Assembly (NCBI GenBank): GCA_021208265.1
Contig: JAJOJU010000004.1
Span: 34,688-98,687 of the forward strand
Reading direction: 5' to 3'
Length of the DNA stretch: 64,000 nucleotides
From: Alphaproteobacteria bacterium
GTDB taxonomy: Bacteria > Pseudomonadota > Alphaproteobacteria > Micavibrionales > Micavibrionaceae
Part shown: one piece after another, positions 12,566 through 15,211 of the stretch
Layout: the number at the start of each line of letters is the position of its first letter
Numbering within the stretch: the first letter of the stretch is position 1
The notes under the pieces: generated by a model
What the model saw: only the letters and a program-made list of their open reading frames with translations
The model's database searches: none
What the model was told of the DNA's origin: nothing
Position numbers and translations under genes: made by a program

Positions 12566-12645
12566 TAACCTTGGCGGTGCTTCGTAAGAAGCTGAGATAA
12601 GACGCCTCGAACCTGTGGGCTAATACCTGCGCAGGGAAAGGAAAG
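12566..12645 (+). promoter_or_regulatory. TPP (THI-box) riboswitch; its 3' P1 strand overlaps the Shine-Dalgarno of the ORF at 12649
   Basis: CCUUGGCGGUGC-UUCGUAAGAAG-CUGAGAUAAGACGCC-UCGAACCUGUGGGCUAAUACCUGCGCAGGGAAAGG contains the conserved GGxGUGC, CUGAGA, ACGCC (pairs with GGCG), GAACCUG, AAUACC and GCxxAGGGAA blocks in the canonical order. AAGGAAAG is the RBS, ending 5 nt before the ATG. Confidence 0.8.
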
Positions 12646-12648
12646 ACA

Positions 12649-12984
12649 ATGCCTCATATAATCGTGGAGTATACCGACCACCTGAAGGTCGGTATACCGG
12701 AACTTCTCAAAAAGCTGCACTTCACATTGGCGGATCAAGACACAGTCGCTCTGGAAGCCATTAAAACCAGAGCGATCCCTGTGCATGATGTTGTGATCGC
12801 CGATGGCAACGCGGGCGATAAAATGATTCATGTCACCCTTAAACTTCTGCCGGGCCGCAGTGATGAACTCAAAAAAACTATGGCGCAGGCCTTGTGGCAA
12901 ATAACACGTGATCACGTGGACGATAATACGATCATGCTAACCGCCGAAGTCACAGAGCTGCACGCCGCCAGCTACACGAAATAA
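12649..12984 (+). CDS. Tautomerase-superfamily protein, 5-carboxymethyl-2-hydroxymuconate isomerase (CHMI)-like
   Basis: 111 aa starting MPHIIVEY (catalytic Pro-1 after Met removal). IHVTLKLLPGRS parallels the VHMTLKIGAGRS of HpcD-type CHMI as I recall it. First gene downstream of the TPP riboswitch. Confidence 0.7.
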   Translation: MPHIIVEYTDHLKVGIPELLKKLHFTLADQDTVALEAIKTRAIPVHDVVIADGNAGDKMIHVTLKLLPGRSDELKKTMAQALWQITRDHVDDNTIMLTAEVTELHAASYTK

Positions 12985-13007
12985 ATTCGACCTGAAAGCA
13001 CAAAACC

Positions 13008-13412
13008 ATGAAAAAACTAGCCTGCCTTCTCTCTCTACTCCTCATCTGCGCTTGCGGCCCGATTTATGATACCCAGTATCGCTATGAAACACCGCCCACG
13101 GCTGAAGGAAAAATCTGCGCCAGCAGTTGTATCGACAAGCTGAATACATGCTCGGCCAACTGTAAAACCGAAGAAGCCAATTGCCGCCACATAAAAAGCC
13201 TGGAAGCTAAAAACGCCTATCTGGAATACGTGAATGAGCGTCAGAGAAAAGGCGAAAAAGTGAAAAAGAGCCAGAGCGATTTTGAATATTACGGCTCCTG
13301 CAGCAATAGCTGCCAAGATGATTGCGAAAACGTTCATCGCATCTGTCATTCAACCTGCGGCGGGAATGTGGTGGAACACCGCACCTGCACAGCATTTTGT
13401 AATCAACAATAA
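13008..13412 (+). CDS. Cys-rich lipoprotein (16 Cys in 134 aa), unknown function
   Basis: Lipobox LLICAC after a hydrophobic signal. Cys residues are spaced through the mature part. The gene sits 23 nt after the CHMI-like gene and 15 nt before thiC. Confidence 0.55.
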   Translation: MKKLACLLSLLLICACGPIYDTQYRYETPPTAEGKICASSCIDKLNTCSANCKTEEANCRHIKSLEAKNAYLEYVNERQRKGEKVKKSQSDFEYYGSCSNSCQDDCENVHRICHSTCGGNVVEHRTCTAFCNQQ

Positions 13413-13427
13413 ACCGGGAGAGTAACC

Positions 13428-15211
13428 ATGACACCTAAAGATCAACCAGCCACGGGCATCTGCCCCTCCACGCTGCACGTAACGCGCGGGGCTATCAGCG
13501 GCTCCAAGAAAACCTATGTGGGCGACCTCAAAGTACCGATGCGCGAAATTACGCTGGAGAACGGCGATGCCTTCACCGTCTACGATACCTCCGGCCCCTA
13601 TACGGATGAGAGCGCACAGCTCGATATTATGAGAGGCCTCCCCAAACTGCGCCAACAATGGATTCTGGACCGCGGCGATGTGGAAGAAATTGAAGGCCGC
13701 GCCGTGCAGGCTGTGGATAATGGCTATAAGGACGATGATCATAAAGCCAAGCTGCGCGAGAAAAAAAGGCTTAAGCCATGAACGCTTCCCGGCCAGCCCC
13801 GAAAAGCCTTTGCGTGCCAAGGCGGGCCGTAACGTTTCACAAATGCATTATGCGCGTCAGGGCCTTATAACCCCTGAAATGGAATTCATCGCTGTACGCG
13901 AAAATCAGGCGCGGGAAGCTGTGCATAATAATAAAGGCGGCGAAGGTTTCGGGGCAAACCTGCCGGACTTTATCACCCCTGAATTTGTGCGCGATGAAGT
14001 GGCGGCGGGAAGAGCGATCATCCCCAATAACATCAACCACCCGGAATCTGAGCCCATGATCATCGGGCGGAACTTCCTGGTGAAGATCAACGCCAATATC
14101 GGCAACTCCGCCGTTACATCATCCATAGGTGAGGAAGTCGATAAAATGGTCTGGGCCACACGTTGGGGCGCCGATACGATCATGGATCTTTCCACGGGCC
14201 GCGATATCCACGATACGCGCGAGTGGATCTTAAGGAATTCCCCCGTGCCGCTCGGCACCGTTCCCATCTATCAGGCGCTGGAAAAAGTGGGCGGCATTGC
14301 CGAGGAACTCAACTGGGATGTGTTTAAGGACACGCTTCTAGAGCAAGCCCAGCAAGGCGTGGATTACTTCACCATCCATGCGGGTGTGCGCCTTCCCTAT
14401 ATTCGCTACACAACGGATCGTATCACAGGTATCGTTTCCCGAGGCGGTTCCATCATGGCGAAATGGTGCATGGCGCATCACCGCGAAAGCTTCCTCTACA
14501 CGCATTTTGAGGAGATTTGCGAGATCATGAAGGCGTATGACGTTGCGTTTTCATTGGGTGATGGCCTGCGCCCCGGCGCGATCAAGGATGCGAACGACCG
14601 CGCGCAATTCGCCGAGCTTCCACGCTGGCGAGCTCACCCAAATCGCCTGGAAGCACGATGTGCAAACCATGATCGAAGGCCCCGGCCACGTGCCGATGCA
14701 TCTGATCAAGGAAAACATGGATAAGCAGTTAAAGGAATGTTACGAAGCACCGTTTTATACGCTCGGCCCCCTGACCACCGACATCGCACCAGGCTACGAC
14801 CACATCACTTCTGCGATAGGAGCGGCGCAGATCGGCTGGTACGGCACGGCGATGCTGTGTTACGTAACGCCGAAGGAGCATCTTGGTTTACCAAACCGTG
14901 ACGATGTGAAAACAGGCGTTATCACCTATAAAATCGCGGCCCACGCGGCTGACCTTGCCAAAGGCCACCCCGGCGCGCAAAAGCGTGATGATGCCCTGTC
15001 CCTCGCCCGCTTCGAATTCCGCTGGCAGGATCAGTTTAACTTGAGCCTTGATCCTGACACGGCAAGATCGATGCACGATGAAACCCTCCCCGCCGAAGGG
15101 CACAAACATGCCAGCTTCTGCAGCATGTGCGGCCCCAAATTCTGCTCCATGAAAATTACGCAGGACGTGCGGGACTTTGTGGCGGAAACAGAAAAAGACA
15201 GAGCCGCTTAA
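13428..15211 (+). pseudogene. thiC: Phosphomethylpyrimidine synthase ThiC, two frame breaks
   Basis: Three ORFs (13428-13781, 13678-14724, 14537-15211) join. Motifs: [36 protein letters not shown], and the C-terminal Fe-S motif [11 protein letters not shown]. Breaks are in the A7 run 13761-13767 and near 14620. Confidence 0.92.

Follow-up and report, generated by a model that had tools for sequence, protein, structure and literature searches.

A TPP riboswitch in front of a short CHMI-family gene and thiC in Micavibrio-like Alphaproteobacteria

Here we describe a thiamin pyrophosphate (TPP) riboswitch and the genes that follow it in 64,000 nucleotides of DNA from an alphaproteobacterium of the Micavibrionaceae (contig JAJOJU010000004.1)—this whole stretch is referred to below as the window. 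The riboswitch directly precedes a gene for a small protein, here called X, of the 5-carboxymethyl-2-hydroxymuconate isomerase (CHMI) family; genes for a cysteine-rich lipoprotein and for ThiC follow. The association of X with the riboswitch and thiC is real and specific, and only one group of Micavibrio-like alphaproteobacterial metagenome-assembled genomes (MAGs) shows it. No single piece of evidence decides the role of X, and our reading of it as a keto-enol tautomerase for a small dicarboxylate of central metabolism is tentative.

These observations add a tautomerase-superfamily gene to the TPP-riboswitch regulon, in an arrangement kept in at least 30 loci, and they provide a concrete route to function for a short CHMI-like branch of proteins. 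The hosts form an under-studied group of largely uncultured alphaproteobacterial MAGs. If the readings discussed below are true, X is either a new thiamin-pathway enzyme or an oxaloacetate tautomerase outside the FAHD family whose expression is tied to thiamin.

The riboswitch and its place ahead of X and thiC

The Rfam family RF00059 matches positions 12563-12654 of the forward strand with 63.8 bits (gathering score 54.3, E 3.3e-10), covering model positions 1-105 in full; it is the sole Rfam family at its gathering score across the 64-kb window (cmscan). An original prediction made from the letters alone had placed a THI-box at 12566-12645, with its 3' strand over the Shine-Dalgarno (SD) sequence of the open reading frame (ORF) at 12649, and both statements hold: the AAGG strand of helix P1 lies in AAGGAAAG. 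The only SD-like element of X falls within GGGAAAGGAAAG (12634-12645), 6 nt 5' of the ATG at 12649.

Comparison of the leaders of 23 homologous loci gives the same design. The motif GGGAAAGGA is essentially invariant, lies 6-12 nt 5' of the ATG of the first ORF, and is followed by a start region that reads ATG-CCN-CAY. RNAalifold recovers P1-P5 from these leaders, with compensatory changes in 11 of 20 consensus pairs; the THI-box core (CUGAGA ... ACCUG) is kept, and CTGAGA is invariant. At least 25 related loci have the riboswitch at this same position ahead of the X unit.

The original prediction also held that no second riboswitch precedes thiC; the Rfam scan agrees, finding one TPP match in the 64-kb window and none that belongs to thiC itself. 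No promoter- or terminator-like sites were seen on the forward strand between X, the lipoprotein gene, and thiC, which are separated by gaps of 23 and 15 nt. The hairpin and T-run found 3' of thiC is a weak consensus match, and terminator-like sites in the region are no more numerous than in shuffled sequence. From these features it is highly likely that a canonical TPP riboswitch controls one transcription unit, X-lipoprotein-thiC. Within RF00059 this riboswitch is unremarkable, and the operon follows the leader design of proteobacterial thiC in a variant form—X occupies the first-ORF place that thiC holds in other alphaproteobacteria.

Regulation would then follow a familiar course. With TPP bound, P1 (CCUU/AAGG) would close and hide the only SD of X, leaving X untranslated; downstream expression would drop by loss of translational coupling, by Rho polarity, or by mRNA decay, by analogy with the thi riboswitches of E. 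coli. At low TPP the SD would be exposed, and X, the lipoprotein, and ThiC would be produced. The ligand-free minimum free energy structure pairs CCAAG (12560-12564) with CUUGG, occupying the P1 5' strand (12560-12574 overall). This modelled hairpin is a possible anti-P1 or anti-sequestor element that would free the SD—a weak suggestion, as the hairpin is not conserved in the other loci and the ligand-free leader fold is no more stable than shuffles (z 0.08).

Scanning one genome per GTDB species yielded 80 loci, comprising 38 with a short Micavibrio-type X and 42 with a canonical CHMI of 126-130 residues (Bacilli, Burkholderiaceae, and similar). thiC lies immediately 3' of X in 26 of the 38 Micavibrio-type loci (L010 ends just past X) and at none of the 42 canonical loci. 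A riboswitch at gathering score, its 3' end abutting the X start codon, is present at 18 of the 26; it abuts a DUF3429 ORF preceding X in L009 and L011, and sub-threshold matches occupy the identical position in L028, L015, L076, L005, and L006. Further cases of X followed by thiC come from other collections (L084, L091, L093, L179, and L180; the sources include the complete 2.2-Mb genome CP060239.1 and a TARA contig of 314 kb), and the chromosome OZ246000.1 has the full arrangement with a B-type X. In 31 such loci, a median of 23 nt separates the end of X from the start of thiC. The recurrence of CHMI-like genes directly 3' of THI-boxes and 5' of thiC, which had been proposed as a check, is thus found in many related genomes, and TPP control of a tautomerase-superfamily gene is very probably real and is conserved.

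Control loci point to the specificity of this arrangement. X is missing from 79 of 80 diverse metagenomic thiC loci, the exception being the locus with the closest ThiC; as that scan returned mostly distant loci (ThiC 69-74% identical), it serves as a negative control only. At the control thiC loci a riboswitch lies 5' of thiC in 14 of 20, mostly directly. The X-thiC loci share the synteny SCO1 | TPP-X-thiC ... yjdM. Locus L094 keeps SCO1 ... yjdM and has the riboswitch directly 5' of thiC, with no X. In a neighbour-joining tree, thiC-linked X occurs in every deep branch.

Several loci depart from the usual layout. The order in L073 is X, a CTTGACA promoter-like box, the TPP riboswitch, and thiC (4336-4582), which leaves X outside riboswitch control; this riboswitch has long inserts in P3 and the P5 loop and scores only 26.6 bits. 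In L065 (1-590) a similar CTTGACAACC box precedes X and thiC, and no riboswitch can be recognised. A third variant, TPP-DUF3429-X-thiC, is found in one lineage, in L009 (3472-3981), L011 (1166-1684), and L086 (9562-9984), where DUF3429 is a 140-aa membrane protein that might be a candidate thiamin-precursor transporter. Two unrelated GC-rich alphaproteobacterial thiC loci (L096, 1860-2445; L111, 1877-2465) carry a small multi-pass membrane protein of 141 or 133 aa between riboswitch and thiC, and one copy matches DUF2065; no homology was found between the L086 DUF3429 protein and the small membrane protein of L096. One X-thiC contig of 2.1 kb (L179, JBARXP010000375.1) is binned as an Elainellaceae cyanobacterium. 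It is probably a mis-binned alphaproteobacterial fragment, because its ThiC, like the others studied here, has PF13667, an N-terminal domain that cyanobacterial ThiC is not known to carry.

Protein X and its possible roles

As originally predicted, the first ORF behind the riboswitch is not thiC; it encodes a 111-residue CHMI-like protein with an N-terminal proline (Pro-1). X begins Met-Pro-His, and PF02962 (CHMI) is its only Pfam match, at 78.2 bits against a cut-off of 26.5. An AlphaFold2 model built on an alignment of 33 sequences has a confidence (pLDDT) of 94.9 and the topology beta-alpha-beta-beta-alpha-beta (E-H-E-E-H-E); its best matches in the PDB are CHMI structures, namely 4jcu and 3e6q (TM 0.88-0.90) and 1otg (TM 0.86). 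P2 (Pro-1), R41, H61, G69-R70, E100, and Y109 are invariant in X and common to canonical CHMI. Given this conservation, X very probably functions as a Pro-1 tautomerase with an anionic substrate. By analogy with known CHMI, the conserved residues would make up the active site, Pro-1 would act as the general base, and X would be trimeric. X is also under clear purifying selection.

The sequences place X in an uncharacterised, new, short branch of the CHMI family in Micavibrio-like alphaproteobacterial MAGs. About 150 homologues were found in a large protein collection; the closer ones are nearly all 106-121 aa long and come from MAGs of uncultured Alphaproteobacteria, Micavibrio, or "Rhodospirillales". 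When 1.84 billion representative proteins were searched with a profile, 849 clusters (50% identity) were obtained at E <= 1e-10 but only 12 at E <= 1e-30, and the material examined linked none of these short CHMI-like clusters to a characterised function. Residues specific to X are H24, K39, G51, M59, L67-P68, and M78.

A role as a true catabolic CHMI (EC 5.3.3.10) of the homoprotocatechuate pathway was considered and rejected on three grounds: the score against the CHMI equivalog model NF011605 is 44.3 bits where the cut-off is 215, the marker residues differ, and the gene context does not fit, as no homoprotocatechuate (hpa/hpc) neighbours were found at any X locus. The label "5-carboxymethyl-2-hydroxymuconate isomerase" is almost certainly wrong at the substrate level for these genes.

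X is not restricted to the vicinity of thiC. One clade, about 50% identical to the window X, lies inside the succinate dehydrogenase (SDH) operon in the order sdhC-sdhD-sdhA-X-(...)-sdhB. The start of X overlaps the stop of sdhA in L020, L021, L023, L031, L090, and L173-175, and the overlap persists even where unrelated genes part X from sdhB. MAGs of this sdh type include GCA_013215815.1 and CALSUG01. The thiC-linked and sdh-linked proteins carry identical X-specific residues. In L036, X stands between purK and fumC, all three genes lying on one strand and spaced by 27 and 37 nt. On the complete MAG chromosome OY969717.1 (L024, 3278-5946), X stays at the ancestral SCO1 locus, followed by guaB, with neither riboswitch nor thiC there. 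Elsewhere X follows an HI0933-like flavoprotein gene (L176) or stands alone between an AstE/AspA-like gene and lemA (L177), and still other copies lie in unrelated places, for at least nine differing contexts overall. Each of the complete chromosomes CP060239.1, OY969717.1, and OZ246000.1 appears once among the X matches, and X looks single-copy in these three. A window ORF at 11546-12508 with a weak AstE_AspA_cat match was compared with the AstE/AspA-like gene of L177; the proposed homology was dropped (E 0.22).

We tentatively favour a reading in which X interconverts the keto and enol forms of a small 2-oxo/2-hydroxy dicarboxylate from central metabolism and is needed when TPP is short; the leading candidate substrate is enol-oxaloacetate. 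The substrates of CHMI and 4-oxalocrotonate tautomerase (4-OT) are 2-hydroxy-dienoate dicarboxylates, of which enol-oxaloacetate is the C4 analogue. This enol form arises when SDH oxidises malate, and it is a potent, tight-binding inhibitor of SDH itself; other organisms clear it with a dedicated FAHD-family tautomerase, and E. coli fumarase has a side activity on it (PMC10825186). At low TPP, 2-oxoglutarate dehydrogenase—a TPP-dependent enzyme—would slow and the succinate/malate ratio would drop; SDH would then form more enol-oxaloacetate from malate, raising the demand for X. The reading is favoured because it covers both the thiC-linked and the C4-dicarboxylate (sdhA, purK-fumC) contexts: it would explain the placement behind the thiC riboswitch in most lineages as well as the coupling to sdhA in a sister clade.

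Several points weigh against this reading. The dominant context of X, and probably its ancestral one, is thiC, which is not a gene of the tricarboxylic acid (TCA) cycle. Genes under riboswitch control usually serve the pathway of the ligand itself. X also stays beside thiC where the riboswitch intervenes (L073) or is missing (L065), which looks like a partnership with ThiC and not mere membership of the TPP regulon. The sdh-linked proteins form a single clade, so they represent one relocation event, and the sdhA|sdhB junction in that clade holds unrelated insertions as well. Finally, the idea that TPP represses a repair enzyme of the TCA cycle is ad hoc.

Another reading is that X is an unrecognised enzyme of thiamin biosynthesis, either the missing non-TenI thiazole tautomerase of Proteobacteria or an accessory step that partners the radical-SAM (S-adenosylmethionine) enzyme ThiC. 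This is doubtful, though a serious possibility; if it is true, X would bring the tautomerase superfamily into cofactor synthesis for the first time. A role in the thiamin pathway agrees with the commonest setting of X and with what riboswitch regulons usually contain, and leaves the sdhA and purK-fumC contexts unexplained, whereas a role in the TCA cycle only leaves the long-kept partnership with thiC unexplained.

Partnership with ThiC could mean that X helps in the pyrimidine branch, which makes 4-amino-5-hydroxymethyl-2-methylpyrimidine phosphate (HMP-P), or in pyrimidine salvage. The substrate that it tautomerises might be an unstable aminoimidazole or pyrimidine compound, or else a shunt product of ThiC, with the sdh and other contexts as neutral relocations. 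X lies immediately 5' of thiC with the short spacing given above at 31 loci that span the deepest splits of the X tree, and the pairing outlasts three layouts (TPP-X-thiC, X-TPP-thiC in L073, and X-thiC in L065) as well as cargo insertions. The copy beside purK neighbours a consumer of aminoimidazole ribotide (AIR), the substrate of ThiC. The proposed ThiC mechanism has several tautomerisation steps and released shunt products (PMC11117688); these tautomerisations are on-enzyme, however, and no free tautomerisable ThiC intermediate is known. ThiC also manages without X elsewhere, both at 79 of the 80 control loci and at the syntenic L094, and X is kept in the absence of thiC, at the ancestral locus in L024 and in other places. 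We regard this helper role as unlikely.

The original prediction had instead proposed a non-orthologous thiazole tautomerase—an analogue of TenI that would use Pro-1 as general base to aromatise the product of ThiG. X could only be a non-homologous analogue, as its fold is that of the tautomerase superfamily and not the TIM barrel of TenI/ThiE; likewise, it could only be an analogue of the oxaloacetate tautomerases with the FAH/FAHD fold. TPP control of X in most lineages is consistent with the proposal, and the conserved CHMI-family residues are intact, including Pro-1 and two arginines; such residues suit an anionic, carboxylate-bearing substrate. Thiazole aromatisation is the only known step of thiamin biosynthesis that needs a tautomerase, and most Proteobacteria are not known to have TenI (Hazra et al. 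2011). Our literature search gave no competing assignment. The gene neighbourhoods nevertheless give the proposal no support: X is never beside thiG, thiS, thiF, thiO, or thiE, its thiamin partner is always the pyrimidine-branch gene thiC, and relatives with the same residues sit in sdh, purK-fumC, and stand-alone contexts. Searches with E. coli ThiE, ThiF, ThiS, ThiG, and ThiH (tblastn, E <= 1e-4) found none of them in the window or in about 90 loci, and no sdh genes or further thi genes were found in the window. The arrangement is also limited to one MAG group, though the lack of TenI is widespread. This mechanism belongs among the less likely options, and we consider it quite improbable.

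X may also be a passenger with no functional link, which landed once at an insertion-tolerant junction between riboswitch and thiC and was vertically inherited; its ORF may even be a mere translated spacer that strengthens polarity-based control of thiC. All X-thiC loci fall in one MAG group that shares the SCO1 ... YjdM synteny, which may reflect one event, and X occurs in many contexts. The junction takes unrelated cargo too—DUF3429, the Cys-rich lipoprotein, a CDF (cation-efflux) fragment, and, in other alphaproteobacteria, DUF2065-like proteins. Purifying selection on X and its conserved residues common to CHMI speak against a passenger, as does the constant position of X amid changing flanks and cargo, even as its own sequence diverged to 35-45% identity. 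Moreover, two of about nine non-thiC contexts involve TCA C4-dicarboxylate enzymes, which is unlikely by random placement. On balance this explanation is improbable.

The lipoprotein, thiC reading frames, and the rest of the window

The coordinates of the features are collected in Table 1. The lipoprotein has the predicted length and spacing from X (134 aa, 23 nt), but its cysteine count is 15 and not 16. A precomputed annotation puts it in PF27284 (Aq_678); no match was found in local Pfam, NCBIfam, or the PDB, and only three other clusters of homologues were found. Because of this scarcity, and since it is missing from most X-thiC loci, the lipoprotein was rejected as a conserved member of the unit. 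It sits between X and thiC only in the window lineage, L008, and L091, and is a lineage-restricted insertion, or cargo. The 656-nt gap between X and thiC in L006 (4340-4990) translates to a fragment of a CDF domain; together with the Cys-rich lipoprotein and the nearby SCO1, it gives the cargo of the locus a metal-handling flavour.

Table 1. Positions of the features discussed, in the window unless another locus is named
Feature	Position	Strand	Basis or remarks
TPP riboswitch aptamer (THI element)	12563-12654	+	RF00059; 3' tail unstructured, reaching the X start codon
P1 5' strand, CCUU	12569-12572	+	cmscan alignment; RNAalifold columns 15-18
P1 3' strand, AAGG	12638-12641	+	pairs with CCUU 12569-12572
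Shine-Dalgarno of X, AAGGAAAG	12638-12645	+	includes AAGG, the P1 3' strand
X, 111-aa Pro-1 tautomerase, CHMI fold	12649-12984	+	PF02962
Cys-rich lipoprotein, 134 aa	13008-13412	+	signal peptide; lipobox-like LLICAC; 15 Cys; CX3C repeats
thiC (HMP-P synthase)	13428-15211	+	PF13667 and PF01964; NF006763 on all three pieces
Terminator-like hairpin and T-run 3' of thiC	15341-15367	+	weak consensus match
sdh-linked X	L088 8001-8327; L090 8001-8327; L173 4754-5080		start codon overlaps sdhA stop

thiC starts at 13428, 15 nt after the lipoprotein as predicted; what had gone unnoticed is that it is split into three frames (13428-13781, 13678-14724, and 14537-15211). Three near-identical contigs, L081, L082, and L083 (from two NCBI MAG assemblies and one Logan assembly), differ from the window solely by single-base indels, at differing places. 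The A-run at 13761 has one surplus A in the window and L081 that is not in L082 or L083; two bases missing from the window at positions 14617 and 14626 are present in L081 and L082; and L082 has two private insertions. A composite of the window and sister sequences gives an uninterrupted ThiC of 594 aa.

Further genes of the window are split into adjacent or overlapping ORFs (9413-10668, 19801-21604, 39466-42625, and 53398-54620); these are genes for a Toluene_X porin, a 3-hydroxyacyl-CoA dehydrogenase (3HCDH), a resistance-nodulation-division (RND) pump, and an HI0933-like flavoprotein. The assembly appears to hold many single-base indel errors, and apparent pseudogenes in the window are not trustworthy. 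A real thiC pseudogene and a programmed frameshift were both rejected: because the sister indels differ and other window genes are split, the breaks are assembly noise, and thiC is treated as intact in the organism.

Inspection of ORF translations by eye gave two further observations. The region 25613-33723 looks like a cbb3-type cytochrome oxidase cluster, with a copper ATPase and assembly genes, and 54941-63704 holds very large, repetitive, secreted adhesin-like ORFs after a TpsB-like gene.

Comparison with known systems

The unit resembles proteobacterial TPP-thiC operons such as thiCEFSGH of E. coli and the thiC operons of alphaproteobacteria, which likewise have an RF00059 aptamer and thiC in the unit. 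In these operons, too, the 3' end of the aptamer lies at the start codon and the SD is sequestered, as in L094 and the metagenomic thiC controls. The window differs in that the first ORF, whose SD is buried, is a tautomerase gene, and in that no thi genes come after thiC.

Canonical CHMI (HpcD/HpaF, 1OTG, PF02962) shares with X its fold and all of the invariant residues listed above; however, CHMI is longer (126-130 aa versus 111 aa) and has N, R, A, F, G-A, and T-C at the positions of H24, K39, G51, M59, L67-P68, and M78 in X. The markers of canonical CHMI are FPxGG, A51, A58-F59, G67, and C79, and FPxGG is missing in X. The genetic setting differs as well—the canonical CHMI gene of L026 (Pontibacillus) stands amid two FAA-hydrolase genes, an aldehyde dehydrogenase gene, and a LysR regulator gene, and X loci do not have such neighbours.

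By analogy only, TenI of B. subtilis would belong to the TPP regulon as X does and would likewise tautomerise an anionic substrate by a proton shift. TenI is a ThiE-like TIM barrel whose gene clusters with thiO-thiS-thiG-thiF, whereas X has the beta-alpha-beta tautomerase fold and, of the thi genes, clusters with thiC only.

In the literature search, no paper connected thiC or TPP riboswitches with CHMI or the tautomerase superfamily, and nothing relevant was found on Micavibrio and thiamine; two published systems offer partial parallels. The oxaloacetate tautomerase OAT1 (FAHD1/2, YcgM in E. coli) catalyses the reaction proposed for X, the conversion of enol- to keto-oxaloacetate, and has a link to SDH as do the sdhA-overlapped relatives of X (Zmuda et al. 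2024, PMC10825186); its FAH fold, however, is unrelated to that of X, and the window X is linked to thiC and TPP. The closest precedent for inferring a role in this way is OarX, likewise an enzyme whose gene has no obvious thiamin function and lies behind TPP riboswitches beside thi genes, and which was given a role in thiamin salvage by comparative genomics (PMC11223231). OarX occurs in diverse bacteria with several thi genes, whereas X is found in one Micavibrio-like group, beside thiC as its only thi gene, and in non-thiamin contexts as well.

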